From Clostridiaceae bacterium (GTDB lineage Bacteria; Bacillota; Clostridia; Saccharofermentanales; DTU023), in NCBI GenBank assembly GCA_012838475.1, contig DUPE01000195.1, positions 15,748-79,747 on the forward strand: a stretch of DNA of 64,000 nucleotides, read 5' to 3'. A program made the position numbers and the translations under genes. Below the pieces are notes generated by a model that searched no databases, had not been told where the DNA came from, and was given only the letters and a program-made list of their open reading frames with translations. How positions within the stretch are numbered: position 1 is the stretch's first letter; every line of letters starts with the position of its first letter. Positions 1,883 through 62,604 of the stretch are shown one piece after another.

Positions 1883-2124
1883 CATCATCGCCAGGCAGAT
1901 CTGCTCTCTCACCTCAGCTGCTGTGACAAATAATTTTCTAAATCTAACCACCCGCGAGTCAGATCTACTCTGCTTTCCTCGGTTGCAGTAACACATATAA
2001 TCTTACTCTATTTAGTCATCTGCGAGTTAGCCTGGATTCCCCAATTGCTGCCATTATTAGCTTATCTTATCCACTTATCTGCCAGGCAGATCTGCTCTGC
2101 TCGGCTGCTACAGCAAATAAGCTG
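1883..2124. repeat. Degenerate tandem repeat of about 60-66 bp, about 4 copies, in the divergent SDR/walR intergenic region
   Basis: Copies start near 1883, 1949, 2016 and 2071. The shared core is gccaggcagatctgctct...gctgct..caaataa. The outer copies are most similar. Confidence 0.5.
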
Positions 2125-2177
2125 ACGTAGCTTATTATTTGTTAGCATACATTAATTGTAGTCTGATATTCTCTGTA

Positions 2178-2186
2178 TGATATAAT
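2178..2186 (+). promoter_or_regulatory. Candidate extended -10 element (TGaTATAAT) for the walR operon
   Basis: tgatataat lies 42 nt upstream of the walR ATG. No good -35 was seen. Confidence 0.35.
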
Positions 2187-2227
2187 CATTTTATTAAATA
2201 TCATAGACTTCTGGAAGGGACGACATT

Positions 2228-2932
2228 ATGGATCTGAAAATTTTGGTCGTGGATGATGAACCTAATATTGTCGATATATTGGAAGAGAATTTATCTCGCG
2301 AAGGCTATACGATTCTGAAGGCATATGATGGGGCGACTGCTCTGCAAATCGTTCTTGACGAGCAACCTGATTTGATCCTTCTGGATTGTATGTTGCCCCG
2401 TATGGACGGCTTTGAGGTATGTAAGAGAATTCGCCAGAAGTCCTCTGTTCCGATTATAATGCTCACAGCCAAGAGCGAAGAAATAGATAAGGTGCTAGGT
2501 TTGGAGCTTGGTGCTGACGATTATATTACGAAGCCTTTTAGCGTCCGGGAAGTACTGGCCCGGGTGCGAGCTCTTTTTCGGCGTGTTCAATATAGTGAAA
2601 ATGAGCAGATCGATTCTGACCAGGTTTTGGTCTTTGGCGATTTGGAAATAGATCAGGCGGGATATCAAGTAAGTTATAAGGGAACCCCTATTGAATTAAC
2701 TTTGCGTGAGTTTGAATTGATCCGCTTCCTGGCCAGACATGAAGGACAAGTTTTCTCCCGTGAAGAATTGCTTGAAAAAGTCTGGGGCTATGAATATTAT
2801 GGAGACGTCAGAACAGTAGATGTCACGGTTCGCCGCACCAGGGAGAAACTGGAGCCTGACCAGAACCACTACCAATATCTGCTGACTAAACGAGGCGTTG
2901 GTTATTATTTCTCGAAGGATCATAGCGACTAA
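2228..2932 (+). CDS. walR: OmpR-family response regulator, WalR-like
   Basis: Receiver domain (DDEP...D...LTAK) plus a winged-helix domain. It matches B. subtilis WalR closely by eye (VWGYEYYGDVRTVDVTVRRTREKLE, TKRGVGYYF). GGAAGGGA RBS upstream. Confidence 0.75.
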   Translation: MDLKILVVDDEPNIVDILEENLSREGYTILKAYDGATALQIVLDEQPDLILLDCMLPRMDGFEVCKRIRQKSSVPIIMLTAKSEEIDKVLGLELGADDYITKPFSVREVLARVRALFRRVQYSENEQIDSDQVLVFGDLEIDQAGYQVSYKGTPIELTLREFELIRFLARHEGQVFSREELLEKVWGYEYYGDVRTVDVTVRRTREKLEPDQNHYQYLLTKRGVGYYFSKDHSD

Positions 2933-2938
2933 GCAAAA

Positions 2939-4288
2939 ATGAATACTGCCGCAATCGTTCTTCTAACTGCAATTCTTACAACAGCGATCTGTATGGTCGC
3001 TGTCTTTATATGGAATCGTTACCACGGTAGCAAAAGAAACAAACGCGTCATGAAGGTAATAGAACAGGTGCGTGCAGAGCGTATTGAATCACAACGGATT
3101 CTGGCAGTGCTGGAATTGGGTATATTGGCCTATGGCAGTGACGAACATCTTTTAACTGCCAACAGGATGGCACGCTTCATGCTTAAGGAAATCCCGGAAG
3201 TCTTTTTGGAGTTTTGCCAGAAATATGGTTCGGAAAATGGTATCCACGCTTCTGTTCTTCTGGGTAATAACAATGTGAATGGTATCTATACAGCAGGAGA
3301 CCGTTTCTATCGCATCACAATACAAAAACAAAGATTGGGCAGCAGCGGTAACAGACGCTATGGTCACATCGTTATGGTTCTGGACATTACTGCTCAGGAA
3401 AACGAGGAGAAGAGAAGGAAAGAGTTTGTCGCAAATGTCTCACATGAGTTGAAGACGCCTCTAACTACGATCAAATCCTGGTCGGAGTCTCTTCTGGACT
3501 GGGGCATAGATGAAAAGGACTCTACCGGCATTAAGGCTGACGTCCAAAGAATATACGATGATTCTATGCGCATGGATCAACTGGTTTCAGACTTGCTATT
3601 GCTTTCGTCCATCGACAGCAGAGGCGTGTATGTTGATTTCCAACCTATCGATCTTGACAGTATCGCCAGATCGGTCACAGAAAGACTTATACCTCAGGCC
3701 GAGGACCAAGATCAAAAACTGAGTTTTACCAGACTGGGGAAAATACCCATGATTTATGGCGACCGGGCTGCCATTGAGCGTATCCTGACGAATCTAATTG
3801 TTAACGCTATCAAATACACCCATGATGGCGGTCAAATCTCCGTTTATGCCAATAGCCTGATTGATGAGGTCTATGTTAAGGTGGCTGACAATGGCAAAGG
3901 CATCAGACAAGAGTTCCAGGAGGAGATTTTCAAGCGATTTTTTCGTCTCGATCCAACAGGGTCCAGACAATATGGCGGTACCGGTCTCGGTTTGCCCATC
4001 GTACGCGAACTGACAAATCTTCACAGAGGCAGAATAGAATTGCAAAGCGAAATAGGTGAAGGCTGTGAATTCATGGTTTTCATCCCCACTTTAAACAAGG
4101 TGAGAAGAGATATTCTGTTCGATTTGATTGCCGGCAATATTATTGATGATCCTTGCGGACAGGCGGCAGAAAGAGAGATTCGCACATTTTTGACCAGAAA
4201 TGGCGACATCGATTGGCCTCCTCGTCTGACCGGGAATGATTGCGAGATCATACTTAAAAAAATGGATGAGAACATGAACCCCGGTTAA
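2939..4288 (+). CDS. walK: Sensor histidine kinase, WalK-like, with one N-terminal TM segment and a short cytoplasmic sensor region
   Basis: H-box EFVANVSHELKTPLTTIKSW resembles WalK. N box (LTNLIVNAIKYT), G1 (DNGKGI) and G2 (GGTGLGL) are present. It starts 7 nt after the walR stop. Confidence 0.7.
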   Translation: MNTAAIVLLTAILTTAICMVAVFIWNRYHGSKRNKRVMKVIEQVRAERIESQRILAVLELGILAYGSDEHLLTANRMARFMLKEIPEVFLEFCQKYGSENGIHASVLLGNNNVNGIYTAGDRFYRITIQKQRLGSSGNRRYGHIVMVLDITAQENEEKRRKEFVANVSHELKTPLTTIKSWSESLLDWGIDEKDSTGIKADVQRIYDDSMRMDQLVSDLLLLSSIDSRGVYVDFQPIDLDSIARSVTERLIPQAEDQDQKLSFTRLGKIPMIYGDRAAIERILTNLIVNAIKYTHDGGQISVYANSLIDEVYVKVADNGKGIRQEFQEEIFKRFFRLDPTGSRQYGGTGLGLPIVRELTNLHRGRIELQSEIGEGCEFMVFIPTLNKVRRDILFDLIAGNIIDDPCGQAAEREIRTFLTRNGDIDWPPRLTGNDCEIILKKMDENMNPG

Positions 4289-4317: not shown

Positions 4318-5709
4318 ATGAGGTCTAATGTGAAGTGCTATAAAGTTGAAGGCGGTAATCGCCTCAGTGGAAAGATTGAGATAAGCGGATCTAAAAATGC
4401 TGCGTTGGCAATTATCGGAGCAGCGATGGCACTGGACGGCCCCTGCGTAATCCACAATCTTCCTGATGTCCGCGACGTGCAGATTTTTTTGCAGGTCTGT
4501 TCTGAGATAGGCGCTGAAGTTGAGATTTTGGGCAAGAACAAGGTACGCCTTAATCCAACGACAATTACTAAGCCGGAAGCAATATCACCTAAGGTATCAA
4601 TGCTGAGAGGTTCATACTATCTCCTGGGTGCTCTCCAATCGCGTTTCGGCTCTTGTAAGGTCACGATGCCCGGAGGTTGTGATCTCGGCGTCAGACCGAT
4701 TGACCTCCATCTCAAGGGCTTCATGGCGATGGGGTCTGATATTGACATTATCTACCGTAATATCAATGGTGAGGAGCTTTGGTTCAACTATGACGGCGGT
4801 ACTGCTTCCATGCCTGAACAGGGAAGCCCGGACGACTTTGCACTTGAGCCTGCCTTCATTCATTGTCAGAGCAAGAACGGCAAGATGAAGTCTGCCAGCA
4901 TCTTTCTGGACACGGTCAGTGTCGGAGCGACAGTAAATATCCTGCTTGCAGCTGTCAAGACCGAGGGCATTACAGTGATTGACAATGCAGCCAGAGAACC
5001 ACATATCGTTGATGTCGCTAACTTCCTCAATACCATGGGAGCAGATATCAGAGGGGCCGGTACCGAGACTATCAGAATCAAGGGCAAACCTTATTTACCT
5101 GCAAACAAAGAATATATGATAATTCCGGATCAGATAGAAGCCGGCACCTATATGATGATGGCTCCACTGACGGGAGGGGATATTACGGTGATGAATATTA
5201 TCCCTACCCATATGGAGCCTTTGACCGCAAAGCTGTTGGAAATGGGGGTTGGCGTGGAAGAAAGCGAAGAGAGCATCTACGTCTATTCGCGAAACGGTCG
5301 GACACTAGCGCCTGCCAGCATCAAGACAATGCCTTATCCGGGATTTCCTACTGATCTGCAGCCCCAGATTACTACCCTGCTTTGCCACGCTACGGGTACC
5401 AGCCGTGTCATTGAAACAGTGTGGGAGAACCGCTTCGGCTATGTCTCTGAACTGAACAAAATGGGCGCAAACATTGTAACTTCGGGACGCTTGGCAGTTA
5501 TTACCGGTGGTGTGCAGCTGATTGGATCCACAGTGAGAGCTCTCGATTTGCGTGGAGGCATGGCTGTGACCATGGCAGGACTATCCGCGGAAGGAGAAAG
5601 TGTTGTGGAGAACATCAGCGTAATTGAACGCGGTTATGAGAATGCCATCGATAAGATCAGATCCCTGGGAGGAAATGTCTCCAGCTTTGAAAAGAAAGTT
5701 GGCAGGTGA
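4318..5709 (+). CDS. murA: UDP-N-acetylglucosamine 1-carboxyvinyltransferase (MurA paralog 1) carrying an internal insertion of about 34 aa
   Basis: EGGNRLSGKIEISGSKNAAL N-terminus, active-site PGGCDLGVRPIDLH, and FPTDLQPQ. The true start may be GTG 4330, which is preceded by a GAGGT RBS. Confidence 0.9.
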   Translation: MRSNVKCYKVEGGNRLSGKIEISGSKNAALAIIGAAMALDGPCVIHNLPDVRDVQIFLQVCSEIGAEVEILGKNKVRLNPTTITKPEAISPKVSMLRGSYYLLGALQSRFGSCKVTMPGGCDLGVRPIDLHLKGFMAMGSDIDIIYRNINGEELWFNYDGGTASMPEQGSPDDFALEPAFIHCQSKNGKMKSASIFLDTVSVGATVNILLAAVKTEGITVIDNAAREPHIVDVANFLNTMGADIRGAGTETIRIKGKPYLPANKEYMIIPDQIEAGTYMMMAPLTGGDITVMNIIPTHMEPLTAKLLEMGVGVEESEESIYVYSRNGRTLAPASIKTMPYPGFPTDLQPQITTLLCHATGTSRVIETVWENRFGYVSELNKMGANIVTSGRLAVITGGVQLIGSTVRALDLRGGMAVTMAGLSAEGESVVENISVIERGYENAIDKIRSLGGNVSSFEKKVGR

Positions 5710-6605: not shown

Positions 6606-8678
6606 ATGGAAAAAAGATCGAGCAAAAAAACGGAGCCGCAAGGTCGAGGCAGGGCGCGCTGGATCCGACTAGACAATGCGTCCAAGCTTTTCCCCGCCAC
6701 GGCAAATCTTCAGGACACCAAAGTGTTCAGGGTAACGGCGGAACTAAATGAGGCGGTTGATCCTGAGATCCTGCAGCAAGCATTGGATGCTATCATGCCG
6801 CGCTTCCCAAGTTTCAATGTGGTTCTGAGGCGGGGTGTGTTCTGGTATTATTTCGAACAGAGTGACCTGCGCTGTCTCGTTCAGCCCGAGACTGAAGATC
6901 TTTACGAGCCTCTGTATACCAAGGGAGAAAAAAGATTGCCCTTCAGGGTCATTTACTACGGCAGCCGTATCAATGCGGAGATCTTTCACGCGGTCTGCGA
7001 TGGGGCGGTGGCCGTAGCCTTTATCAAAGCACTGTTGGGCCAATACCTGCTGCTCAGTCATCCTGAGAAGGTAGAAAAAGAAGATATTCAGTACCTGTTT
7101 GAACGCTCTCCGGCCAGCGAGAAGCTAAATGACAGCTTCCAGAGATATTTCAAGCATAGTGGCGTTCTGAAGAGCAAGCAGGCAAAGCCGGAAAAAAAGA
7201 AAAAACGCGTCAGGGCATGGAGATATAAGGGAACAAAATTGACCAGGCATCGCGCTAACCTGATCGAAGGCACTATGCCGATCGATGCCGTTCTGGACGC
7301 CGCTCATCGTTATAACACAACTCTGACAGTTTATATCTCGGCCATATATTCCAAGGCTCTTTGGGAGGCACGTAGGGGTGACAAACCTCGACCCATTATC
7401 CTTACTATCCCGGTGAACCTGAGACCGTTATTCAGATCCAGAACGGAACGAAACTTCTTCAATGTCATGCGTGTCAATCTGCCTGAGCCCACTGCAGAGG
7501 AAGCATCATCCTTATGCTGGTGGATCAAGGTAATTGCAGAAGGTCTCAAAGATACCCTGCAACCTGAGAAGCTGGCGTCGGACTCAGCCGGACTGATGAA
7601 GCTGGAATCTAACCCGGCGCTGCGAATATTTCCGACAGGTCTGAAGGATTTTATTTTGCGTATAGCTCACCGTGTGAGTGACAGCAGGCATACTACCAGC
7701 ATCTCTAATGTGGGACAGATCGATCTGCCGGAGAGATTTTGGCCTTTTGTACGCAGCTGCCATATCTCCGTTGCCACACGCGGCATCTCCATGACAGCTA
7801 TTAGCAGTGTAGGGATCTTTGCGGTCAGCTTTATATCAGCTTTCAGGGAGAATGAGCTCCAATACCGATTTTTTACGACACTGCAAGATGAAGGTGTCCC
7901 GATTGAGATTACCAGTAATAGGAACATTATCACGTCTGAGGGCGGTTACGAGAACGGCGATTCGGCGATCGTGCCGCCCGCGGAAGGTATCAGCCCTGCC
8001 GGAGCGACGATTTGCCCCAACTGTGGCTGCGCTATTCGAGGTTACAAGGCGAGATGCCCCTTGGACAATGAGCCGCTGTACCTGTCTGCTGATGCCAGGT
8101 CGGATGAAGCCAGAGATGTTTTTCCTGTTGCGGAACAGAAGATGAACCGCCTTCTCCTGACGAGATTGTTTGCCTTCATATCTATTGCCGCAATGGTCAT
8201 CAGCATAATGATCAACTACACACTTGAGCTGCCTATCAACTTGCCCGTCATGACATTGCTGGGCATTATCTCGACTTGGGCCAGCGTTGGCGCTGTTGTT
8301 ATCAGGCGAAGACAAATCAGCAAGATTGTTACTTGGCAGGTCACGATCCTGTCGCTCCTGATGTTAGTTTGGGACTGGATGCTTGGCTGGCAAGCCTGGT
8401 CTCTGAACTATGCCATTCCGATTACTATGCTGGCTGCTCAGGCTACGCTCTATATCCTCGCACGGGCACTGAATTTGGATAGTGGCGATTACATGATATA
8501 TCTGTTGCTGTGCGCATTATTGGGACTTTTGCCGCTGCTCTTCCTTATCTTTGGCTGGGTTACGATCCAGCTGCCTTCCGTCATCTGTGTTGGTGTCAGT
8601 CTGCTCATGATAGCGGGAGCTCTTATTTTCCAAGGGGGCGTTATTAAGCACGAGTTGACTAAGCGCCTCCATATCTAA
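6606..8678 (+). CDS. HxxxD acyltransferase (condensation / alcohol-acetyltransferase-like fold) fused to a Zn-ribbon and a polytopic C-terminal membrane domain
   Basis: 690 aa. The N-terminal ~440 aa carry FHAVCDG (the HxxxDG motif). CPNCGC...CPLD forms a ribbon around aa 470-490. Several hydrophobic helices lie in the last ~170 aa. Confidence 0.5.
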   Translation: MEKRSSKKTEPQGRGRARWIRLDNASKLFPATANLQDTKVFRVTAELNEAVDPEILQQALDAIMPRFPSFNVVLRRGVFWYYFEQSDLRCLVQPETEDLYEPLYTKGEKRLPFRVIYYGSRINAEIFHAVCDGAVAVAFIKALLGQYLLLSHPEKVEKEDIQYLFERSPASEKLNDSFQRYFKHSGVLKSKQAKPEKKKKRVRAWRYKGTKLTRHRANLIEGTMPIDAVLDAAHRYNTTLTVYISAIYSKALWEARRGDKPRPIILTIPVNLRPLFRSRTERNFFNVMRVNLPEPTAEEASSLCWWIKVIAEGLKDTLQPEKLASDSAGLMKLESNPALRIFPTGLKDFILRIAHRVSDSRHTTSISNVGQIDLPERFWPFVRSCHISVATRGISMTAISSVGIFAVSFISAFRENELQYRFFTTLQDEGVPIEITSNRNIITSEGGYENGDSAIVPPAEGISPAGATICPNCGCAIRGYKARCPLDNEPLYLSADARSDEARDVFPVAEQKMNRLLLTRLFAFISIAAMVISIMINYTLELPINLPVMTLLGIISTWASVGAVVIRRRQISKIVTWQVTILSLLMLVWDWMLGWQAWSLNYAIPITMLAAQATLYILARALNLDSGDYMIYLLLCALLGLLPLLFLIFGWVTIQLPSVICVGVSLLMIAGALIFQGGVIKHELTKRLHI

Positions 8679-8820: not shown

Positions 8821-8947
8821 AAAATTTGAAGGTAGCCTGCTTGGAGCGGGTGGAGGAGATGGACCCGTTGCAAGGCGGGTAGGAACTCAGCCGCATAGCT
8901 GAAGTGATTTTTGAGTAGCCTGCTTGGATCGGGTGGAGGGGATGAAC
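8821..8947. repeat. Direct repeat of about 44 bp, 2 copies with an 83-bp period, upstream of the ABC exporter
   Basis: 8821-8864 versus 8904-8947. Core: tttgaRgtagcctgcttggaKcgggtggaggRgatg. The second copy supplies the GGAGGGG RBS of the ABC gene. Confidence 0.6.
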
Positions 8948-8951
8948 TCTA

Positions 8952-10769
8952 TTGAAACAGAATTGGGATGAGCCTCTTTTTGAAGTAAAATCTACGCGTG
9001 AACTGCTGCTTCTGCGGCCCACACGTTTTGCCATCTATATCTTCGCCTGCCTTTTTCCAATAGTCATGCAGGTATCGATGGCTTATGTTCTCTCCAATGT
9101 CTTGGGACTATTACAGCATTCAGGAGCCGCGGATTGGCGCCGAACTATTATTTGGGCAGCAGTTTTCGCTTTGGGAGCCCCTTTGCTGCAGCTTACTTCC
9201 AGGTATCTGCGTATTGGCTATATGCGGGATACATTGCTGGATCTGCGCAGACTGGTCTTCCAAAGAATACTATCCCTCTCTTATCAGACATTCAGCAGGA
9301 GGTCGCGGGACAGTTATGTTTCCAAGCTGACTAATGATATCAATCTGTTTGAGAAAGATTTTTTCCTCTCTCTCTTAAATGTGATTTTTGCTGTAGGTGC
9401 CGCCACTGTGTCACTCATTTTGATTCTGCTGGAAGACCTGGTTTTTGGAATCATTATCGCTATCTTAGCTGCCGCTTTGATGTTGATTGCGCGTCTCTTC
9501 AGGCAGCCGCTGGTGAATACTCGTGAAGCCATTATGCAGGAGAACGAACTCTTTTCACTCAAAATAGGAAATTTTTTCTCCGGTCTGGAGATTATTCGCC
9601 TGAATCGAGTGGAAGAACATTTTAAGGAGGATACTGACGCACAATCTCTGCAGTTGGAAGAAGCCAAATATAGAGGACGCTTTCTACAGCAACTGCAGGA
9701 GCTGGTTTTGTCTAAAACCAGTACATTGATGACCTTAGTCACTGTCGCTTACGTTGGCATTATGATGGCTCAAGGTAAGATGTCTCTGGCGATCGCCGCG
9801 CTCTTGCTGCAGCTGCAGGGTAATATCGCCTGGCCCCTGATAAGCCTATTTGATATGCGCAATCGACTAATCGCATCTAATAAAATCTTTCAGACATTAA
9901 TCGAGTCTCCCGGAGATGAAACAGTACTGGCAGAAAGAGAAGCAGCAAGCGCCAATGTAGAAGCAGCAGGTGCCAAAATACTTTTGAATAAGCAACAAGC
10001 AGTAATTGTTGAAGCTGAACGGAGAAGCACTCTGAACCTGCTCAGTCAAGATATCATCCTCACTGATCTGACTTATAAATTTGCAGATGCTCAAGAGCCT
10101 GTTCTAAGACAGGCTGATTTGCACTTGCAGGGTGGGGGCAAGTATCTGCTTAAAGGTGTTTCAGGATCCGGCAAGACTACTCTCCTTAATCTGCTGTCCG
10201 GCGCTTTCCGTGATTACGAAGGCGAAATTACTTACGGCGGGATATCATTTAGGGACATCGATGAAGAAAGCTTTAATGAAGGAACAGCACTGATTTTGCA
10301 AGACGTTTATTTGTTTGAGACCACTATCAGGGAGAACATCTGTTTGTTCAAAAAATACTCTGATATAGAAGTAGAACGGGCAGTTCAGATTGCCGGTTTG
10401 AGCGGATTGACAAAGCAGCTGCAACAGGGTCTGGATACCGAATTGACTGAGAACGGACACAATCTGTCCGGCGGTGAAAGACAGCGTATCTCTATAGCAA
10501 GAGCCATTATCAAGGGCTCACGTCTGCTCTTGGCAGATGAGATAACTTCAGCTATTGATCCTAACTTAGGCAGAGAAATAGAGCAGGGCATTCTCAATCT
10601 GCCCATGACGGTTGTCGCGATTTCCCATCGTTATTATGACGGGGTATCGGACCGGTATGATGGTGTGATTGAACTAAAGCAGGGTAAACTGGCTCTTTAT
10701 CCTTCGGACTATTATTTCAGCGGCAAGAGACACTGGCCAGAGGCAGGCCGGGAGGTGACAAATGTCTGA
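8952..10769 (+). CDS. ABC exporter half-transporter (fused permease + ATPase), subunit 1
   Basis: N-terminal 6-TM region. Walker A GVSGSGKTT, signature LSGGERQR, Walker B LLLADE. TTG start with a GGAGGGG RBS. Confidence 0.85.
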   Translation: MKQNWDEPLFEVKSTRELLLLRPTRFAIYIFACLFPIVMQVSMAYVLSNVLGLLQHSGAADWRRTIIWAAVFALGAPLLQLTSRYLRIGYMRDTLLDLRRLVFQRILSLSYQTFSRRSRDSYVSKLTNDINLFEKDFFLSLLNVIFAVGAATVSLILILLEDLVFGIIIAILAAALMLIARLFRQPLVNTREAIMQENELFSLKIGNFFSGLEIIRLNRVEEHFKEDTDAQSLQLEEAKYRGRFLQQLQELVLSKTSTLMTLVTVAYVGIMMAQGKMSLAIAALLLQLQGNIAWPLISLFDMRNRLIASNKIFQTLIESPGDETVLAEREAASANVEAAGAKILLNKQQAVIVEAERRSTLNLLSQDIILTDLTYKFADAQEPVLRQADLHLQGGGKYLLKGVSGSGKTTLLNLLSGAFRDYEGEITYGGISFRDIDEESFNEGTALILQDVYLFETTIRENICLFKKYSDIEVERAVQIAGLSGLTKQLQQGLDTELTENGHNLSGGERQRISIARAIIKGSRLLLADEITSAIDPNLGREIEQGILNLPMTVVAISHRYYDGVSDRYDGVIELKQGKLALYPSDYYFSGKRHWPEAGREVTNV

Positions 10770-13726: not shown

Positions 13727-13905
13727 TAAAATTACTTGTGGGTAAGAGTTTCAGCCTTTAGCCTGATGAACTACAAACATTATGCATAATTGTGTTTCGC
13801 TTTGAGTCGCAATCACAGGATTTGGTGCACATTAGCTAAGATTTGCTTAATTGATTGTTTTCAGGTAACATTTGTCGGGACCTTAATGGTTCAGATGAGG
13901 TTAAT

Positions 13906-15210
13906 GTGAATTCATATATTCTTGAGGGCGGTTGTCGCCTGCAGGGAAAAATTAAGATAAGCGGTTCTAAGAATGCTGCTCTGCCGATTTTGGCAGCGAC
14001 AGTTTTGCTGGACGGCAAATACCATGTTGAAAACATCCCCTTGATTGAAGATATTCTTACTTTACTGGACATACTTAGGTCTTTGGGTGCCGGCGTTGAG
14101 CTGCTTGCCGATGGTACCGTACTCATTGACAGCACAACCATCAATGTTACTGCCGCTACCACTGATGCGGTCAGCAAGCTGCGCGGTTCATATTATCTTC
14201 TGGGAGCATTGCTGGGAAGGTTTGGACATGCCTGTCTGAAAATGCCCGGAGGTTGTAATTTTGGCAGCAGACCGATAGATATGCATCTGAACGGTTTTCG
14301 CCAGTTGGGAGCCGAGATCGTCGTAGACGAAGATGTGGTGACCTGTTCGGCGGACCGTCTGCTCGGTAAAAACATCTTTATGGACATTGTCAGTGTAGGG
14401 GCGACAGTCAACCTGATTCTGGCCGCGGTAAAGGCCAGGGGTACTACTGTCATTTATAATGCAGCCAAAGAGCCGCATGTAGTCGATATGGCGAACTTTC
14501 TCAATGCCATGGGGGCAAGTATTCACGGTGCCGGTACAGATATTATCCGCATCAATGGTCGTCATACATTGAGGAGCAGTGGCAGTTACGCTATCATCCC
14601 TGATCAAATCGAAGCAGGGACCTATATGGCTATGACGGCACTGACAAGAGGAGATGCTGTCCTGGAGAATGTGATTCCCAGCCATTTGGAAGCAATTTCC
14701 GCTAAGCTGAGAGAGATGGGTGTAACCATTATTGCCGGTGAAGACAGTATCAGGGTCCTTATGGAGCCTGAACGTAAACTGGCAGCTACGAATTTTGTTA
14801 CCTCACCGCACCCAGGCTTTCCCACCGATATGCAGCCCCAGATTATGGTCTTGCTTACGCAGGCCGAAGGAACCGGCAAAGTTACGGAGAATGTCTGGAA
14901 CAATCGTTTTCAATATATTGATGATCTCCGCTCGTTGGGAGCTAAAATCGTAACAGAAGGTCGCTCTGCCTTTGTTACCGGTAAATCGGATCTTTTGGCC
15001 TCCACTATTAGAGCCCACGATCTGAGAGCAGGAGCTGCTATGGTAATGGCAGGTTTAGTAGCCGATGGCACTACGGAAATCACAAATGTCGATTTGATCG
15101 AGCGCGGCTATGAAAACTTCGTGGAGAAGATGAGCGGTTTGGGAGCCACGATTAAGAAACAACCGGCTACAGTATCTGAGGATGCCGCCGATATCAGTTC
15201 TGCAGTCTGA
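13906..15210 (+). CDS. murA: UDP-N-acetylglucosamine 1-carboxyvinyltransferase (MurA paralog 2)
   Basis: EGGCRLQGKIKISGSKNAAL, PGGCNFGSRPIDMH, FPTDMQPQ. I chose GTG 13906, which has a GAGGT RBS and the same start architecture as paralog 1. The ORF itself is open from 13855. Confidence 0.9.
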   Translation: MNSYILEGGCRLQGKIKISGSKNAALPILAATVLLDGKYHVENIPLIEDILTLLDILRSLGAGVELLADGTVLIDSTTINVTAATTDAVSKLRGSYYLLGALLGRFGHACLKMPGGCNFGSRPIDMHLNGFRQLGAEIVVDEDVVTCSADRLLGKNIFMDIVSVGATVNLILAAVKARGTTVIYNAAKEPHVVDMANFLNAMGASIHGAGTDIIRINGRHTLRSSGSYAIIPDQIEAGTYMAMTALTRGDAVLENVIPSHLEAISAKLREMGVTIIAGEDSIRVLMEPERKLAATNFVTSPHPGFPTDMQPQIMVLLTQAEGTGKVTENVWNNRFQYIDDLRSLGAKIVTEGRSAFVTGKSDLLASTIRAHDLRAGAAMVMAGLVADGTTEITNVDLIERGYENFVEKMSGLGATIKKQPATVSEDAADISSAV

Positions 15211-15355
15211 TTGGGCATTAGTTCTATTGAGTTCTCCAGTCTGATTGGATGGTGTTATGGCTTGACGCCATGTGACGGATATCACACTGATTCTATTGGG
15301 TTCTGCTGACCGATTTGATCTTAAGCGCGTTTTGGTTCTGCTACCGGATTTGATT
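15195..15355. repeat. Degenerate short tandem repeats that begin in the last codons of murA2 and re-copy its stop codon
   Basis: cagttctgcagtcTGAttggg (15195-15215) versus gagttctccagtcTGAttgga (15229-15249), 18/21 identical. Weaker copies lie at 15298-15320 and 15333-15355. A separate pair gaacaRMMgcgGRacggaaagcttRSc lies at 15382-15410 and 15443-15471. Confidence 0.6.
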
Positions 15356-48968: not shown

Positions 48969-48990
48969 TAATTTTTATGATAACGAAGTT

Positions 48991-49012: not shown

Positions 49013-49061
49013 TTCTTCCTATCTAAAGAACTAATTGTTCGCAAGAAACAAGGAGGAACAA

Positions 49062-51673: not shown

Positions 51674-53021
51674 TGTTCTGGTAGCCGAGATTGGCAGTAC
51701 CACGACAGCAGTCAATGCATTTACAGGACTAAATAGCGCTAACCCTGCCCTGATCGGGCAGGGTGTAGCGCCTACTTCTGTGGAGGCAGGAGACGTAACT
51801 GTTGGTCTGAAAGAAGCAGTATCGGATCTCAAGGACCAACTGGATATTGATGAATTAAGCTGGGATCATATGTTTGCTTCCAGCTCTGCTGCGGGTGGGC
51901 TCTCAATGACGGTACATGGACTCGTTTATGATATGACCGTTAGAGCAGCTAAAGAAGCGGCGCTTGGCTCCGGCGCTGTTTTACGTCATGTAACAGCCGG
52001 TAAGCTCAGAAGAACTGACATCGCTAAAGTCAAAGAGATAGCGCCAAATATTATTTTAGTTGCCGGTGGCGTTGACTACGGTGAAAGAGATACCGCGCTT
52101 TATAATTTCGAGATGCTTGCCAGAGAGGTACCCGGTATTCCCATTATCTATGCAGGCAATATAGAGAATCACGATGAAATCCGCTTGATTGCGGAAGAAT
52201 TGGGCACTGAAGTTTTTTATGTTGAGAATTGTTATCCTTGCATTGACCAACTCAACATAGAGCCAACTCGCATCATTATTCAAGATGTCTTTGAAAAACA
52301 TATCATCCATTCCCCAGGGATGGAAAAGATCCATGAAATGGTTGACGGTACCATAATGCCCACTCCTGGAGCTGTTATGCAAGCGGCCAAAATGGCAAAT
52401 GAGAAGTTTGGTGACTTGATTGTGTTTGACGTTGGCGGAGCTACCACAGACTTGCACTCGGTTACAGAAGGAAGTCCTGCGATTCAAATGATTTTAATGG
52501 CTCCGGAGCCATTTGCAAAAAGAACAGTTGAGGGTGATCTGGGGGTCTATGTCAGCCGCAAGAATATTTTGGATCAAATATCAGAACGCGAGCTTGAAGA
52601 GTGCTTCCCCGATAAAGAATACTATTTAGAACACGCCTCTGAAATCCCCACTGAGCAAGGCGAGATTGAATTTGTCGAACGACTGACTGAGTTTTGTTGC
52701 AGGCTGGCTCTGAAGAGACATGCAGGGATTATGACCGAGCTTTATACTGCTCATGGCCGCAAAGTAACTGCGATAGGCAAAGATCTGACAGCTGTCAAAA
52801 CCATAATCGGCACAGGTGGTGCTCTGACCAGATTGCCGCATAGCGTTGAAATATTAGAAAGACTGCGGGTGCGCGAGGTTATTAAAGAGCTTTATCCCAC
52901 GACAGAAGCAGTTGTTAAAATTGATCATTACTACATAATGGCTTCATTGGGAGTTTTGTCTACCCAATTTCCTGAAGCCGCAATACTCTTGCTACAACAA
53001 TCTATGGATGTAAAAAACTGA
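51663..53021 (+). CDS. GlmL/MutL-like protein (putative B12-aminomutase reactivase or chaperone)
   Basis: The N-terminus VLVAEIGSTTTAVNAF and an ASKHA-like fold (FDVGGATTD). It overlaps the oraE end. Confidence 0.6.
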   Translation: MKVDVLVAEIGSTTTAVNAFTGLNSANPALIGQGVAPTSVEAGDVTVGLKEAVSDLKDQLDIDELSWDHMFASSSAAGGLSMTVHGLVYDMTVRAAKEAALGSGAVLRHVTAGKLRRTDIAKVKEIAPNIILVAGGVDYGERDTALYNFEMLAREVPGIPIIYAGNIENHDEIRLIAEELGTEVFYVENCYPCIDQLNIEPTRIIIQDVFEKHIIHSPGMEKIHEMVDGTIMPTPGAVMQAAKMANEKFGDLIVFDVGGATTDLHSVTEGSPAIQMILMAPEPFAKRTVEGDLGVYVSRKNILDQISERELEECFPDKEYYLEHASEIPTEQGEIEFVERLTEFCCRLALKRHAGIMTELYTAHGRKVTAIGKDLTAVKTIIGTGGALTRLPHSVEILERLRVREVIKELYPTTEAVVKIDHYYIMASLGVLSTQFPEAAILLLQQSMDVKN

Positions 53022-53044
53022 AAAACTATTCTGCGGGAGGAAAT

Positions 53045-54106
53045 ATGAGAAATCCAACTTTATATATTGATCGCCAAAAGTTAATGCATAATGTTAAAAG
53101 TATGCTTAAATTGGCGGAGAAAGCTAATATCCAAATTCATTTCGTCACTAAAGTCTTTTGCGCTTTCAGGCCCATGGTGGAAGCTATGGTAGAGGCCGGA
53201 GCTACATTGCTGGCGGACTCCCGTTTAGAGAATATTGCAAAATATGAGAATTTGGGCGAAAATCACCTATTGCTACGCATGCCAATGATCTCGGAAGCTG
53301 CCGATGTAGTCCGCATTTCGCATATGAGCCTGAACTCCGACTTAGACGCCTTGGCTGCCTTGTCTGACGCTGCGTCCGCTCAGGGTAAAAGGCACGGCGT
53401 AATCCTAATGACTGAGATGGGGGATCTGCGCGAAGGCTTTATGCCTGAAGAGCTGCCTGACGCTGCCGGTAAAGTGCTCAACCTCAGAGGCTTGGATCTG
53501 ATGGGAATTGGTGCAAACTTCAACTGCTATGGTGGCGTTATACCCGACGAGCCCAAATTAAATGAGCTAATCGATCTGGCAAAATCTATTGAAGATCGTT
53601 TCAATATCGAGCTCCCCATAGTCTCAGGAGGTAACTCCGGATCTGTTTATCTGCTTGAAGAGGGCAGATTACCGGAAGGCATCAATCATCTGCGTTTAGG
53701 TGAATCCTGGATTTTGGGCTGCGAGACTTCTTACGGTAAGCGCGTTGCCGATTTGTACAGCGATGTTTTCACCCTTGAGGCTGAAGTAGTTGAATGTCGC
53801 CGTAAACCATCACTGCCGTATGGTTTGCAAGGACCGAATGCCTTTGGAGAGTACCCTGTTTATGAAGACAGAGGAGTGATCAGACGTGCAATATTAGCTA
53901 TCGGCAGACAGGACTGCCCTTGTGAGTCACTTACTCCCAAGATGACTGGTATTGATTATTTGGGATCGTCTTCTGACCATATGATCCTGGATGTCAGCGA
54001 CTCAGTCAAAGAGATCAAAACAGGTGACATGATACCCTTTGGGGTTGACTACGGTTCCTTGCTGGCCGCAATGACATCTCCATATGTGCGTAAAGTAATG
54101 GTTTAA
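53045..54106 (+). CDS. orr: Ornithine racemase (alanine-racemase-fold PLP enzyme)
   Basis: 353 aa. N-terminal TIM-barrel lysine (HFVTKVF). The assignment also rests on its position at the end of the ornithine cluster. Confidence 0.65.
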   Translation: MRNPTLYIDRQKLMHNVKSMLKLAEKANIQIHFVTKVFCAFRPMVEAMVEAGATLLADSRLENIAKYENLGENHLLLRMPMISEAADVVRISHMSLNSDLDALAALSDAASAQGKRHGVILMTEMGDLREGFMPEELPDAAGKVLNLRGLDLMGIGANFNCYGGVIPDEPKLNELIDLAKSIEDRFNIELPIVSGGNSGSVYLLEEGRLPEGINHLRLGESWILGCETSYGKRVADLYSDVFTLEAEVVECRRKPSLPYGLQGPNAFGEYPVYEDRGVIRRAILAIGRQDCPCESLTPKMTGIDYLGSSSDHMILDVSDSVKEIKTGDMIPFGVDYGSLLAAMTSPYVRKVMV

Positions 54107-54180: not shown

Positions 54181-55353
54181 ATGGATCATAAAATAGACTT
54201 TTCTTCTCAAGACTGGCTACAGCAACGCACTTATGCCAGAGTAGATCTTTCAGCTCTAAGGAATAATTATCGTTCTTATAAACCATATATGGGTTCTGAA
54301 ACCGGTTTTATCGCAGTTATCAAATCCGATGCCTACGGACATGGAGCTGTCCCCTGTGCACAGGTCGCCATTGAGGAAGGCGCAACAATGCTTGCTGTTG
54401 CGGCATTGTCTGAAGCGGTGATTTTACGTGAGGCTGGCATCAGGGAGATACCGCTCCTGATTCTTGGATATACTGATCCGAATTTGACGGAATATCTTCT
54501 GGCTTATGATTTGATACAAACAGTCATAGATTCTGGCAGTGGTCTGGAATACGCAAAGCAGGCGACAAAAATCGGTAAAAAGTTGACAGTCCATATTAAG
54601 CTGGATACGGGCATGACTAGAATAGGCTTTTCAACTGTCCCGCAAGAGCTCAAAGCCAGCGCCGATGAAATAGTTGGGCTAAAGAACCAAGAGTCGCTGA
54701 TTTTGGAAGGACTTTTCACCCATTTAGCTACCGCCGAGAGTGATCCGGCTTATGCGACTTTTCAATATCAATCTTATCAGAGGATGAACAAGGAGCTGAC
54801 TGAGCGTGGAGTTGGTTTTCGCTATCGCCACGTCTGCAACAGTGCGGGGATGATACTCTATCCGGATATGCAACTGGATCTGGTGCGTCCGGGGATTACT
54901 CAATTTGGATCCTATCCTACAGATGCCTTCAAGAAGCTTTTGCCTTTGCGTCCGGTTATGAATCTATATTCTCGCGTGGTGCAGACAAGGAATGTCGATA
55001 CCGGTACAGGTGTTAGTTACAGTTTGCGCTGGAAAGCACCTGGCCCAAGCAAGCTGGCTGTGATACCGATTGGTTATGCAGACGGGCTCCACAGATTGTT
55101 ATCTAACAGAGCTTCCTTCCTTATTAATGGTAAGCTCGCTCCTGTTGTAGGCAGCATTTGCATGGATCGATGCATGGTGGATATTACGGATATTCCTGAA
55201 ACCAAAGTAGGTGACAGGGTATTGATTTTTGGTGCTGATGAGACGGGATCTATCCCGGTCGAAACTGTTGCCCAACAAGCGGAAACGATCTCTTATGAGA
55301 TTTTATGTGCTGTCTCTCCCAGAGTAATGCGGGTATATGTAGACGGAAAGTAA
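54181..55353 (+). CDS. alr: Alanine racemase
   Basis: AVIKSDAYGHGA (PLP lysine), RPGITQFG, VSYSLRW, ICMDRCMVD. Confidence 0.9.
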   Translation: MDHKIDFSSQDWLQQRTYARVDLSALRNNYRSYKPYMGSETGFIAVIKSDAYGHGAVPCAQVAIEEGATMLAVAALSEAVILREAGIREIPLLILGYTDPNLTEYLLAYDLIQTVIDSGSGLEYAKQATKIGKKLTVHIKLDTGMTRIGFSTVPQELKASADEIVGLKNQESLILEGLFTHLATAESDPAYATFQYQSYQRMNKELTERGVGFRYRHVCNSAGMILYPDMQLDLVRPGITQFGSYPTDAFKKLLPLRPVMNLYSRVVQTRNVDTGTGVSYSLRWKAPGPSKLAVIPIGYADGLHRLLSNRASFLINGKLAPVVGSICMDRCMVDITDIPETKVGDRVLIFGADETGSIPVETVAQQAETISYEILCAVSPRVMRVYVDGK

Positions 55354-55440
55354 ACCGACTCTTTATCTAGACGAGGTAGTCGGAAAGGGTGACGACGAAG
55401 ATAGTATATGTAGACGGAAAGTAAACCGACTCTTTATCTA
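55333..55440. repeat. 37-bp exact direct repeat (71-bp period). The first copy is the alr 3' end plus its stop codon. A degenerate half-copy lies between.
   Basis: gtatatgtagacggaaagTAAaccgactctttatcta occurs at 55333-55369 and 55404-55440. A related gtagtcggaaagggtgacgac lies at about 55376. Confidence 0.9.
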
Positions 55441-59829: not shown

Positions 59830-60005
59830 GCCGTTATTGCTATTTGCTGAACGAGTCGCTTAGCACCTTCGTTGGATAACTGAATATACTCATCGATGCC
59901 AAAGACAGCAGGAGCCCCAAAGGGTGTAAACAGAAGATGTCCTGCCGAGGCGGAGTCGAATTTTTAATTTGAACCCCTCCGTCTAGCGCGAGGGGTTTTT
60001 CAAAT
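59830..60005 (+). promoter_or_regulatory. Ribosomal protein L10 leader (autoregulatory attenuator) ending in an intrinsic terminator at 59972-60001
   Basis: A 208-nt structured gap lies between rplA and rplJ. The terminator aaCCCCTCcgtctagcgcGAGGGGttttt sits just upstream of the rplJ RBS, as in Firmicute L10 leaders. The covariance model was not run. Confidence 0.55.
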
Positions 60006-60024
60006 ATATATAGGAGGAAAAGAC

Positions 60025-60681
60025 ATGCCCAGTGCCAAGATTCTTGAACAAAAGAAAAAAGTCGTCAAGGAACTTCGTGATGAGCTGAAGGGCGCCAAAT
60101 CCATGGTGTTCACTGACTATATGGGTCTAAATGTGGCTCAGGATACTGAGATGCGTGCAGCTTTCCGCAAGGAAGGGCTGGAGTATCGAGTTATCAAGAA
60201 CACGATCACGACACGAGTCTTTGACGAGATTGGTTTGGAAGATCTTAAGTCGATCCTGGTAGGCCCTACCGCAGTGGCATATAGTTCGGAGGATCCGATA
60301 CTTGCGCCCCGTCTGGTAGTAAAATATCGAGACCAATTTAAGAAGTTTTCACTTAAGGGTGGCGTTATGGATGGCGAGATAATCTCTACTGATGAGATTG
60401 AAGAGCTTGCGAACATTCCTGCCCTGCCGGTATTGCACGGACGTCTGGTTTCAACTTTACTGTTCCCGATTTCTTCTCTGGCCATTACACTCAACATGCT
60501 TGCTGAAAAAGCGCAAGAAGCAGGTGTGGAGACTGTAGCAGAGCTGGTAACAGGTGCTGCAACAGCAGAAGAACCGGAAGCTGAGATCGAAGATCCCGTA
60601 GCCGAAGAAGCAGCGATCGAGACAGAAGAGCCGGAAACTAAGGTCGAAGATCCCGCAGCCGAAGAAAACGCTGCAGAATAA
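60025..60681 (+). CDS. rplJ: 50S ribosomal protein L10 with an acidic C-terminal extension of about 45 aa
   Basis: The L10 core (KKKVVKELRDELKGAKSMVFTDYMGL) is followed by a tail built from a 2 x 57-bp in-frame tandem duplication. Confidence 0.9.
   Translation: MPSAKILEQKKKVVKELRDELKGAKSMVFTDYMGLNVAQDTEMRAAFRKEGLEYRVIKNTITTRVFDEIGLEDLKSILVGPTAVAYSSEDPILAPRLVVKYRDQFKKFSLKGGVMDGEIISTDEIEELANIPALPVLHGRLVSTLLFPISSLAITLNMLAEKAQEAGVETVAELVTGAATAEEPEAEIEDPVAEEAAIETEEPETKVEDPAAEENAAE
60568..60681 (+). repeat. In-frame 57-bp x 2 tandem duplication forming the rplJ C-terminus
   Basis: EEPEAEIEDPVAEEAAIET / EEPETKVEDPAAEENAAE*. The DNA units are 60568-60624 and 60625-60681. Confidence 0.85.
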
Positions 60682-61158: not shown

Positions 61159-61185
61159 TTATCTATTTGCTTCAAGAAATTAAAG

Positions 61186-61230
61186 AGGGTGTCTCAGGGA
61201 TTCTGATCTGAATCCCTGAGACACCCTTTT
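61186..61230. terminator. Strong Rho-independent terminator after rplL (probably bidirectional)
   Basis: agggtgtctcagggattc-tgatc-tgaatccctgagacaccct followed by tttt. The stem is a perfect match of about 18 bp. Confidence 0.85.
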
Positions 61231-61347
61231 ACTATAGGATCTGTCCAAATGTATAGCTATTAGCACTGAGCATTTGAAGATGGCGGTGGGCAATCAAGGC
61301 GGCAAAAGACATACATCAAGACAAGTCATGAAGCTTGTTACTTCTTA

Positions 61348-62241
61348 TTAAGATTGGGATTCTGCCTTGGCTTTCTTAATATAACGGGAGGCTGTCAAAC
61401 CGGCGATTGCCCCTTCCCCTACTGCAACCGCAACTTGTGCCAGAGCACCGGTACAGTCACCTGCGGCAAAGACACCGGGGAGGTTGGTGGCACCGTCTTT
61501 GTCAGTTTCGATTGCGTTCATGGCGGTTGCAACACCTAGTCCGTTAGCGAGATCAAGTGCAGAAGCTGCTCCTTCGGCAATAAAGATACCTTGAACCGGC
61601 AGGAATTCACCGGAGCTGAAACGAATGCCGCTGACATAATCATCGACGCCTTCGATACGGTTGATGGGATCAATATTAACCGAAATCTTATCATCTAGTT
61701 TCAAGTCGGTTGACAGATCCCGACCGTTAGTAAGAATTGTCACACTTGCAGCGTAGGCCATAAGCTCGTGTGCTTCATGCAAGGCATAATTACCGTTGCC
61801 CAGTACTGCGACATCCCTGCCTCTATAAAAAAAGCCATCACAAATTGCACAATAGCTTAGACCGGATCCTTCGTATTCTTTGACTCCTTCAATAGACGGT
61901 TTCTTTCTGGGCAAGCCTGTAGCCAAAATTAGAGCATAACACTCGATGGTCCCCTCGCTGGTGTTAAGCTGAAAGCCATCGTCAATCATGCCGGCACCGG
62001 TCACTTCAGCGGTTAATATCTCAACTCCCAGTCTCTTAGCCTGGGCAGTGCCGCCTTCAACTAAAGCTTGCCCGCTGACCGGTTCTTCAAAGCCAAAATA
62101 ATTCTCAATCAAGTCAGAGCCTGACAAAGCACCGATATCGCGGCCAACGACCGTCACGTCCAGACCGGAACGGGCAACATAAATTGCTGCTGACAATCCT
62201 GCAGGCCCCTTGCCCACTATTGCACAATCTGTCTTCTTCAT
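61348..62241 (-). CDS. Thioredoxin-reductase-like flavoprotein (low-Mr TrxR fold) with a CAICDG redox motif and atypical pyridine-nucleotide motifs
   Basis: FAD motif IVGKGPAGLSAA, a CxxC (CAICDG), and the C-terminal GVFAAGD. I chose the ATG at 62241 after GAGGT; the ORF is open to 62274. Confidence 0.75.
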   Translation of the reverse strand: MKKTDCAIVGKGPAGLSAAIYVARSGLDVTVVGRDIGALSGSDLIENYFGFEEPVSGQALVEGGTAQAKRLGVEILTAEVTGAGMIDDGFQLNTSEGTIECYALILATGLPRKKPSIEGVKEYEGSGLSYCAICDGFFYRGRDVAVLGNGNYALHEAHELMAYAASVTILTNGRDLSTDLKLDDKISVNIDPINRIEGVDDYVSGIRFSSGEFLPVQGIFIAEGAASALDLANGLGVATAMNAIETDKDGATNLPGVFAAGDCTGALAQVAVAVGEGAIAGLTASRYIKKAKAESQS

Positions 62242-62286
62242 ATTCAACCTCATATTTAACACTTTTTGTATCATAAACAGTATACC

Positions 62287-62604
62287 TCATTCATTGCGCA
62301 GAGCGTCGATAAGGATGAAGCAGAGAGGCTTTTCTGACAGGATGAATCTCTGGAAAAGAGCGACTGAGCCTGAATAGATAGCAACAGTGCTGTCATTCAT
62401 TGCGCAGAGCGTCGATAGGATGAAGCAGAGAGGCTTTTCTGGCAGGATAAATCTCTGGAAAAGACCGACTGAGCCTGAAAAGATAACAACAGTGCTGTCA
62501 TTCATTGCGCAGAGCGTCGATGGGATGAAGCAGAGAGGCTTTCCTGGCAGGATAAATCCCAAAGAACAGACCTACCGAACTGGAAAAAATGAGAGCTACC
62601 AATA
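62287..62604. repeat. 105-106-bp tandem repeat of about 3.2 copies. The innermost copy is the 3' end of the MacB-like permease gene including its stop.
   Basis: Units start at 62287, 62393 and 62498, each beginning tcattcattgcgcagagcgtcgat (the reverse complement encodes IDALRNE*). The distal ~45 bp of each unit matches the upstream coding sequence only degenerately. Confidence 0.9.

Follow-up and report, generated by a model that had tools for sequence, protein, structure and literature searches.

Background

Variable-number tandem repeats (VNTR), or minisatellites, the markers of multiple-locus VNTR analysis (MLVA), are local head-to-tail repeats with units of tens of bases that are mostly intergenic or in frame and that differ between strains by whole units. 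At the mycobacterial interspersed repetitive unit (MIRU)-VNTR loci, tandem units of 40-100 bp occupy intergenic regions, the ends of the units overlap the stop and start codons of the flanking genes, and the copy number is variable. The standard model of the origin of such repeats is two-step slipped-strand mispairing, whereby a first duplication primed by microhomology is followed by homology-driven gain and loss of units. Here we analyze 11 short tandem arrays in a 64-kb core-chromosome segment from an uncultured Saccharofermentanales bacterium (GenBank contig DUPE01000195.1, positions 15,748 to 79,747; hereafter the window, in which all coordinates are counted from the first nucleotide) and conclude that they are probably ordinary, non-functional tandem duplications of the VNTR/minisatellite type that formed locally and independently of each other, at a raised frequency.

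In prokaryotes, intergenic DNA shows a general enrichment in tandem repeats, which, with sensitive detection, cover about 2.1% of the genome on average (PMC12418385). Among published systems, the repeats of the Borgs, extrachromosomal elements of Methanoperedens, come closest to the overall pattern (Schoelmerich et al. 2023, PMC9879509). Borgs carry many arrays with virtually unique units and independent origins, which evolve fast, differ between close relatives and within populations, and are accompanied by partial flanking repeats; some of the arrays begin in the end of an open reading frame (ORF), all in-ORF repeats have lengths divisible by three, compared to 14-38% of the intergenic ones, and repeat formation is genome-specific, with almost none in the host (PMC9879509). 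The window resembles the Borgs in the multitude and independent origins of the arrays, the restriction of their formation to one genome, the uniqueness of the unit at each locus, the divisibility by three inside ORFs, the rapid turnover, the partial flanking copies and the arrays that start in ORF ends. The differences are as clear: the Borg repeats are perfect, comprise at least three units, consist of 48% A, reside on an archaeal linear element and fall within ORFs in about half of the cases, whereas the copies in the window are 65-100% identical, number 2-4, contain 25% A and belong to a bacterial core chromosome, with one of the 11 arrays in an ORF. Under the criteria of the Borg study (no mismatch, at least three units, at least 50 nt), the window contains no array at all.

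All eleven loci consist of head-to-tail or near-adjacent copies of a unit of at least 10 nt, as VNTR do, and those at mfd, a permease gene and rplJ differ between strains by whole units. Compared with typical VNTR loci, the arrays in the window stand out by their raised local density, low copy number (2-4), numerous decayed copies and the position of several of them over gene ends. The MIRU are one dispersed family found at many loci, whereas the units in the window differ at every locus. Repetitive extragenic palindromes (REP) and miniature inverted-repeat transposable elements (MITE) likewise occupy intergenic spacers but, unlike these elements, the arrays share no sequence, have no dispersed copies and show no excess of hairpins in 10 of the 11 units. 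In diversity-generating retroelements (DGR), as at the permease and mfd genes, a copy of the 3' end of a gene adjoins the gene; a DGR is nevertheless rejected here, given that no reverse transcriptase is encoded among the ORFs of the window, that the substitutions between copies include C/T and G/A changes at non-adenine template positions, and that the repeated units contain the stop codon and have periods, for example 41 nt, that do not preserve the frame. A fixed-length alternation of repeats and spacers, the hallmark of CRISPR arrays, is absent, and there is no cas gene in the window. Thus, the arrays are a known kind of feature at a high local density, and the underlying mutational process is well understood rather than new.

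Results and discussion

Eleven significant arrays with mutually unrelated units

With default scoring, Tandem Repeats Finder (TRF) reports just four arrays with a period of at least 30 nt, namely 21995-22168 (41 nt, 4.2 copies, 90% identity), 43159-43358 (67 nt, 3.0 copies), 60577-60666, and 62287-62558 (105 nt, 2.6 copies, 95% identity). The seven arrays missed under these settings have only two copies or are degenerate, and were recovered with lenient TRF, which yields heavy noise at periods of 20-30 nt in all controls, and by gapped self-alignment. To assess significance, each interval was compared with 300 dinucleotide-preserving shuffles of itself. An earlier reading of the window made from the sequence alone (hereafter, the sequence-only reading) had proposed at least ten independent arrays; 11 of the 12 intervals that it listed are significant, and for each of the 11, none of the 300 shuffles matches the observed score. 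The z-scores are highest for 62287-62604 (55.1), 21990-22170 (41.7) and 43155-43366 (40.8), followed by 55333-55440 (19.6), 8821-9007 (15.9), 60568-60681 (13.9), 15955-16109 (13.1), 43531-43602 (13.0), 1883-2124 (9.5), 15382-15471 (6.5) and 15195-15355 (6.1). The claim that failed concerns a degenerate array downstream of clpC (about 30230-30450; tested as approximately 30150-30450), which has a z-score of 2.6, with 11 of the 300 shuffles reaching its score. The clpC gene itself (27557-30295) encodes a ClpC protein of 912 amino acids with an acidic, low-complexity C-terminal tail of approximately 50-60 residues; the DNA past the stop codon is purine-rich, and the tail and the 3' spacer look as if they were of common origin.

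The array periods span 34-105 nt, most arrays have 2-4 copies, and the identity between copies is 65-100%; several of the "arrays" are only two copies around a poorly conserved middle. The units are mutually unrelated, the best score in an all-against-all cross-alignment being 10 compared to a shuffled maximum of 9, and in a BLAST search of the 64-kb window each unit matches its own array only. The arrays accordingly do not represent a dispersed REP/MITE family, in agreement with the sequence-only reading.

Four of the arrays re-copy the 3' end of a coding sequence together with the stop codon. At 21995-22168 (+ strand), a 41-nt unit present in 4.2 copies that are 90-95% identical occupies the whole spacer that separates the convergent mfd and GDPD genes; the unit consists of the last 39 nt of mfd, TGA stop codon included, and 2 additional nt, begins at the conserved ...FLAA of Mfd, and the array terminates in a partial copy of 9-10 nt. 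At 62287-62604 (- strand), a 105-nt unit in 2.6-2.9 copies combines the 3' end of the gene for the MacB-like permease (62498-63718, - strand), namely its last 58 nt and stop codon, with a 44-nt segment, and two extra copies lie downstream of the gene. The motif AGTTCTGCAGTCTGATTGG, which includes the TGA stop codon of the murA gene at 13855-15210, occurs in four increasingly degenerate copies at 15196-15354 (+ strand), the first of them inside murA and the first two 95% alike over 19 nt. At 55333-55440 (+ strand), two exact 37-nt copies are positioned 71 nt apart, the first comprising the last 21 nt of alr (54181-55353), TAA stop codon included, and 16 nt downstream; the 34-nt middle shares with the 37-mers just GTAGnCGGAAAG, in register.

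Two other arrays abut the 5' side of genes. The array at 8825-8947 (+ strand), a segment of 33-40 nt present twice (88-91% identical) at a distance of 83-85 nt, with weak similarity extending to about position 9007, contains in its second copy the ribosome-binding site (RBS) and start region of an ABC transporter gene (8952), and accordingly duplicates a 5' gene end, a point absent from the sequence-only reading. At 15380-15469 (+ strand), a segment of 25-29 nt occurs twice with a spacing of 61-62 nt and 84% identity, and the pair ends 10 nt 5' of the rlmH start codon.

Among the arrays in spacers, the one at 1883-2124, in the divergent spacer between an SDR gene and a response-regulator gene, consists of about four degenerate units of approximately 64 nt (self-alignment score 23-25, 73-75% identity) and includes an 18-nt exact match at a distance of 191 nt. 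A 63-nt unit in 2.2 copies, approximately 69% identical, at 15957-16094 (+ strand) begins 13 nt past the rlmH stop codon. At 43159-43372 (+ strand), 38 nt past the stop codon of an aminotransferase gene (41955-43121), starts an array of a 67-nt unit in 3.0-3.4 copies, of which the first and second are 97% identical and the third is 86% identical to the first. Each 67-nt unit holds a 16-codon mini-ORF (ATG GCT GAG CTG CCA CGT AAG CTA AGG CCC CTT CCG GCA CAC CGT ATT TAA; MAELPRKLRPLPAHRI), so that about three copies of this mini-ORF, which has no obvious Shine-Dalgarno sequence, precede the arginine deiminase gene. Upstream of the same gene, arcA, a segment of approximately 31 nt occurs twice (88% identical), 40-41 nt apart, at 43531-43602 (+ strand).

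Only one array is entirely intragenic, and its unit is divisible by three, as the sequence-only reading had noted: a 57-nt (19-codon) unit is repeated twice in frame at 60566-60666 (+ strand), within the acidic C-terminal extension of ribosomal protein L10 encoded by rplJ (60025-60681). This extension is rich in Pro, Glu and Ala, is built of 19-residue repeats and lies beyond the part of the protein covered by the L10 family model (residues 8-162).

Reproduction in independent assemblies and strain polymorphism

Exact-protein look-ups in independent metagenome assemblies (ENA ERZ27236863, assembled with MEGAHIT; JGI 3300002898; and the Logan assemblies SRR10098321, SRR8925733, SRR8925781, SRR17065426, SRR27911152 and SRR2917897) retrieved sequences of the same species, with 99.4-100% nucleotide identity to the window. 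At least five independent assemblies, from different samples, reproduce the arrays, several at 100% identity. Those at 1.9, 8.8, 15.2-16.1 and 55.3 kb recur essentially unchanged, the sole difference being one 1-nt gap somewhere in the 12.9-kb alignment of contig L122: the 1883-2124 spacer is reproduced in L122 and L123, the segment 8825-8947 is unchanged in L029, and the alr array is identical in L119 and L120, whereas contig L121 breaks there.

Three arrays differ between strains by whole units, the kind of polymorphism that the sequence-only reading had suggested looking for. The mfd array, with 4.2 copies in the window, has 2.2 copies in L029 and L030, a difference of 82 nt or two units, and this haplotype has its own flanking single-nucleotide polymorphisms (SNPs) and a different terminal partial copy. 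The permease array has 2.9 copies in the window and 1.9 in L035, where the middle unit (105 nt) is missing; scattered SNPs also separate L035 from the window (99.3-99.6% identity), although collapse of this array during assembly is not fully excluded. In rplJ, the window has two units (218 amino acids) and L125 has three (237 amino acids), a difference of one 57-nt unit, and the extra unit, ETEEPKAKAEEPVAEETAA, is diverged in sequence; two other assemblies match the window exactly. The other arrays are invariant in the few assemblies compared. Such a difference in the length of L10 within a species (218 amino acids in the window compared to 237 in L125, 5194-5907) is unusual for a core ribosomal protein. 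The exact-protein look-ups for the aminotransferase and L10 gave no matches; for L10, this may be due to the partial rplJ genes in L127 and L128 or to the other repeat count in L125.

Short-read contigs of this species tend to end at or inside the arrays (L031, L032, L036-L038, L121, L125 and L127; window positions 22035, 62492, 55362, 62332 and 62411): L031 and L032 break at the edge of the mfd array, and L036-L038, L125 and L127 end at or inside the permease array. This is the expected behavior of real repeats in de Bruijn assemblies, and the arrays systematically fragment the assemblies of this lineage.

Turnover between sister species

Two sister species provide a view of the same loci at a greater distance, one represented by contig L034 (RlmH 87% identical to that of the window at the amino acid level) and the other by the 391-kb contig L039 (OraE 97% identical; approximately 82% nucleotide identity). 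Both lack most of the arrays of the window and have different arrays of their own. The spacers are shorter in the sisters: 108 nt in L034 compared to 269 nt in the window between murA and rlmH, 138 nt compared to 352 nt between rlmH and glmU, and approximately 160 nt in L039 compared to 528 nt between alr and hisE. The 63-nt array that follows rlmH has no counterpart in L034, the duplication 5' of rlmH (15380-15469) is single-copy in L034, and the alr-end duplication is single-copy in L039. These observations bear out the view that the window was shaped by repeated local duplication.

Two loci carry duplications in both lineages. The murA-end motif is present in two copies in L034 (40-110) and in four copies in the window (region 15196-15250), in a spacer that is otherwise unalignable, and each copy resembles the others of its own species more than those of the other species, which implies either concerted evolution or independent recurrence of the duplication. 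The rplJ gene of L039 (20560-20910) contains about 3.5 units with the same 57-nt period, that is, a longer array than in the window; this array therefore predates the split of the two species, and its copy number has changed since.

Upstream of alr, L039 has duplications of its own, a 72-nt segment in two copies with a nested 25-nt segment also in two copies, which begin at the stop codon of the racemase gene upstream and reach the RBS of alr. The corresponding site is single-copy in the window, where GGTTTAAT and GGTTTTAAT are located 73 nt apart at positions matching the boundaries of the L039 unit. Thus, the segment repeated in L039 is bounded in the window by an 8-nt microhomology, the clearest view, in one case, of a pre-duplication state.

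The aminotransferase gene (41955-43121) is missing from the sisters L039 and L041. We rejected the possibility that the gene was inserted together with its arrays because, immediately 5' of arcA, L039 (4078-4265) retains a recognizable remnant of the aminotransferase gene that comprises its promoter, RBS and first codons, which indicates that the sisters lost the gene rather than that the window gained it.

Strong noncoding duplications are also found in related digester contigs, namely L071 (3867-4200; 180 nt in two copies, 99% identity), L070 (7485-7735; 125 nt in two copies, 79%) and L118 (7659-7740; 42 nt in two copies, 100%). The process of tandem duplication occurs sporadically across the order.

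Selection and gene ends

Across all loci scanned, the period is divisible by three in 15 of the 15 in-ORF arrays but only in 8 of the 25 arrays outside ORFs (Fisher p = 1.3e-5). This result, together with a coding density of arrays equal to that in relatives and an overlap with gene 3' ends that is no greater than expected, upholds the proposal of the sequence-only reading that arrays survive only where they do not break a frame. Given the observed lengths of units and spacers, random placement combined with such a tolerance rule predicts that 3-4 of 10 arrays lie over a 3' end, and four do; hence no process targeted at 3' ends is needed. The duplication of stop codons follows from geometry once selection has acted, rather than from a targeted process.

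Density and composition

With curated gene coordinates, the arrays account for 1,456 of the 6,802 noncoding nucleotides (21%) and for 2.6% of the window. For comparison with other genomes, we used a split Smith-Waterman self-alignment in 400-nt tiles, calibrated on shuffled sequences (tile scores of at most 17) and on real control loci. At a score of at least 24, the window has six arrays that touch noncoding DNA in 7.0 kb of such DNA (0.85 per kb), compared with 13 arrays in 115 kb of noncoding DNA (0.11 per kb) in related Saccharofermentanales (1.27 Mb in total) and three arrays in 49 kb (0.06 per kb) in other Bacillota (0.41 Mb in total). The relatives thus predict 0.79 arrays in the noncoding DNA of the window (Poisson P ~2e-4 for the six observed), and the noncoding density is about seven times theirs, whereas the density inside ORFs equals that of the relatives. 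The sequence-only reading considered the density unusual for a bacterial core region; this holds per kilobase of noncoding DNA within the window. In view of the general intergenic enrichment of tandem repeats (PMC12418385), the finding is a quantitative, approximately 7-fold excess and not a new kind of feature. This excess is real within the window; its extension to the entire genome and a responsible change in a repair or replication gene are hypothetical.

The spacers that bear arrays are 141-568 nt long, all longer than 128 nt, and include the two longest ones in the window; several array-free spacers, of 189-369 nt, fall in the same range. The GC content of the array DNA (47.7%) is close to that of coding DNA (47.1%) and differs from that of the other noncoding DNA (39.1%), which fits young material partly copied from gene ends; the arrays contain 25% A compared to 30% in the other noncoding DNA.

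Proposed origin of the arrays and alternative explanations

The data fit the standard two-step slippage model. The first duplication at each site would arise when short direct repeats located tens of bases apart prime slippage during replication or recombine illegitimately, as the site upstream of alr illustrates directly. Once two copies are present, misalignment would add or remove whole units, the apparent source of the copy-number differences between strains and of the nested duplications. Purifying selection then discards the duplications that break a reading frame, as the statistics of period lengths show, leaving three classes of survivors: those that lie wholly in a spacer, those that extend across a stop codon or a start region, and those that are in frame within a tolerant, disordered protein tail, such as the C-terminus of L10. 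In the second class, an intact gene remains next to a dead partial copy, and such dead copies probably erode by point mutation. The spread of copy identity, from 100% at alr down to approximately 65-70% at 1.9 kb and 16.0 kb, is what ongoing birth and decay would produce.

Several observations weigh against this reading. The window was chosen for its repeat-rich appearance, and the density excess rests on these 64 kb; an additional 5.5 kb of the source genome (L122) contains no intergenic array, and the sister loci, where 4.6 kb of noncoding DNA contain a single noncoding array, show no clear enrichment. Only one pre-duplication state offers a direct view of microhomology at the unit boundaries, and the origin of the units at 15957-16094 and 43159-43372 is untraceable in the sister species or in the window. 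Furthermore, divergence within units is uneven at several loci, where one part is 88-100% alike and the rest is near random. In the permease array, the 61-nt gene-end segment is 92-97% alike in all three copies, whereas the adjoining 44 nt of the downstream copies are only about 55% identical to the gene's own upstream 44 nt (p ~0.02), and in the duplication at the 5' end of the ABC transporter gene, 33-40 nt are 88-91% alike and the remainder shows no significant likeness. A single simple tandem duplication is insufficient to account for such unevenness, which requires partial gene conversion or junctional filler.

The alternative that survives best, although we consider it unlikely, is that the arrays are real products of slippage in a genome with no raised rate, and that the window is the tail of a normal distribution of intergenic repeats. 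The selection of the window, the array-free 5.5 kb, the occasional noncoding arrays in relatives and the unexceptional coverage of 2.6% next to the published mean of about 2.1% (PMC12418385) are all in line with such a chance cluster. Against it, the six noncoding arrays exceed the expectation derived by the identical method from 115 kb of the noncoding DNA of relatives; moreover, the arrays do not cluster but occur all along the window, between 1.9 kb and 62 kb, and most of them are young, with 88-100% identity at seven loci.

Break repair or insertion, in which staggered breaks or end joining would duplicate the target and add filler, and which would include off-target integration of the CRISPR type, appears highly improbable. 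It is suggested by the repeat-filler-repeat geometry of several loci, 37/34/37 nt at 55333, 33/50/33 at 8832, 29/32/29 at 15380 and 61/44/61/44/61 at 62287, and by the lack of a detectable filler donor nearby: a search of both strands within 400 nt to each side, and of the rest of the window, gave no donor, and templated filler was rejected on the strength of this search. The repeat and filler lengths, however, differ by locus (37/34, 33/50, 29/32, 61/44 and 44/13 nt), so that there is no fixed "ruler" as would be expected of Cas1-Cas2; the mfd and 43.2-kb arrays are uniform head-to-tail units without filler; and the window lacks integrase, transposase and cas genes. In addition, the alr filler has an in-register 11/12 match to the repeat, and the weak similarity of the permease filler points the same way, both suggesting old, decayed copies. 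CRISPR-like off-target integration, to which the geometry at 55333 had pointed, was rejected for these reasons, namely, the variable lengths and a "spacer" that is a degenerate in-register copy.

Less probable still is a functional role, with the arrays maintained by selection as sites for regulator binding, structured 3' untranslated region or leader RNAs, or substitutes for terminators. In its favor, the murA-end motif occurs in more than one copy in L034 as well as in the window despite the unalignable spacer, parts of some units are 90-97% alike while the rest has decayed, the 43.2-kb unit contains the repeated 16-codon mini-ORF upstream of arcA, and the predicted fold of the 8832 unit is more stable than those of its shuffled versions (z -2.65). 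This unit is the exception, the other 10 of the 11 showing no excess of secondary structure (z between -1.1 and +1.0 relative to shuffles), and no array matches an Rfam family, the sole match in the window at the gathering threshold being the L10 leader (59881-60011), outside all arrays; the reading of the arrays as structured RNAs or terminators was rejected on these grounds. The unit sequences also share nothing with each other, the arrays are mostly absent or different in the sister species, their copy number varies between strains, and the downstream copies of gene ends accumulate substitutions freely.

Finally, an assembly or polishing artefact in the source contig, which the ending of other contigs (L031, L032, L036-L038, L121, L125 and L127) at array edges might have suggested, is effectively refuted by the recurrence of the arrays in ENA (MEGAHIT), JGI and Logan assemblies of different samples, by the SNPs specific to the variant haplotypes, and by the substitutions between copies, which show that identical repeats were neither collapsed nor inflated.

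Gene content of the window and its relatives

The genomes closest to the window are metagenome-assembled genomes labelled Mageeibacillus, Clostridiaceae or Saccharofermentanales that originate from anaerobic digesters and fermenters. Their Mfd proteins are 72-78% identical to that of the window at the amino acid level, and given that the best match in the collection is only 78%, the source species lies outside the searched set of genomes.

The window encodes an SDR oxidoreductase (1078-1866, - strand) and a YycF-like two-component pair (response regulator at 2228-2932, + strand), two ORFs of the EPSP-synthase family, taken as murA paralogues, along with ABC exporters, rlmH, glmU, pth, mfd, the GDPD phosphodiesterase, maf, the ctsR-mcsA-mcsB-clpC genes and a V-type ATPase operon. 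Further along are the aminotransferase, arginine deiminase and carbamate kinase genes, an ornithine-fermentation cluster, alr, hisE, nadE, the secE-nusG-rplK-rplA-rplJ-rplL genes, trxB and the MacB-type ABC pair. No transposase, integrase, reverse transcriptase, cas or other mobile-element gene is present among the annotated ORFs of the window, and the window contains no tRNA genes. The two EPSP-synthase-family ORFs (4318-5709 and 13855-15210) are 8 kb apart; the second matches the NCBIfam MurA models, whereas the first is assigned only by its Pfam family (EPSP_synthase) and could be either murA or aroA. For two other sizeable ORFs, family matches are uninformative or absent: 6606-8678 encodes a 690-residue DUF6320 protein, and the 309-residue product of 30643-31572 (- strand) has no match in Pfam or NCBIfam.

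The region 43624-54106 comprises the arginine deiminase/carbamate kinase pair followed by a complete ornithine-fermentation cluster, with a 2,4-diaminopentanoate dehydrogenase fused to OrtA, an OrtB-like PLP enzyme, the ornithine aminomutase subunits OraS and OraE, a "MutL"-family (PF13941) protein and a racemase. Judging from this gene complement, the source organism is probably an arginine/ornithine fermenter. The Pfam "MutL" match at 51663-53021 was set aside as a candidate mismatch repair protein: the gene is located directly 3' of the ornithine aminomutase genes in this cluster, a position from which its product is predicted to be mutase-associated.

Conclusions

The arrays break short-read assemblies at predictable points and, by the same token, are ready strain-typing markers for this lineage in metagenomes. 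If the excess extends to the entire genome, the lineage would be a natural case for the study of the birth, spread and decay of short duplications in a bacterial chromosome, and could show how much intergenic DNA such duplications can build and in what way they lengthen protein C-termini, as in the polymorphic 19-residue repeats of L10. It is conceivable, if doubtful, that the lineage is in a heritable "tandem-duplication mutator" state, in which an altered replisome, single-stranded DNA exonuclease, mismatch repair or end-joining function would cause local duplications of 30-100 nt, part of them with filler at the junction, to arise far more often than in sister genera. Under this scenario, a fifth of the intergenic DNA would have been recently copied from itself, and the continual re-copying of gene ends would supply proteins with new C-terminal tails, of which L10, Mfd and ClpC would be examples, so that this lineage would present a bacterial-chromosome counterpart of the genome-specific formation of repeats in Borgs.

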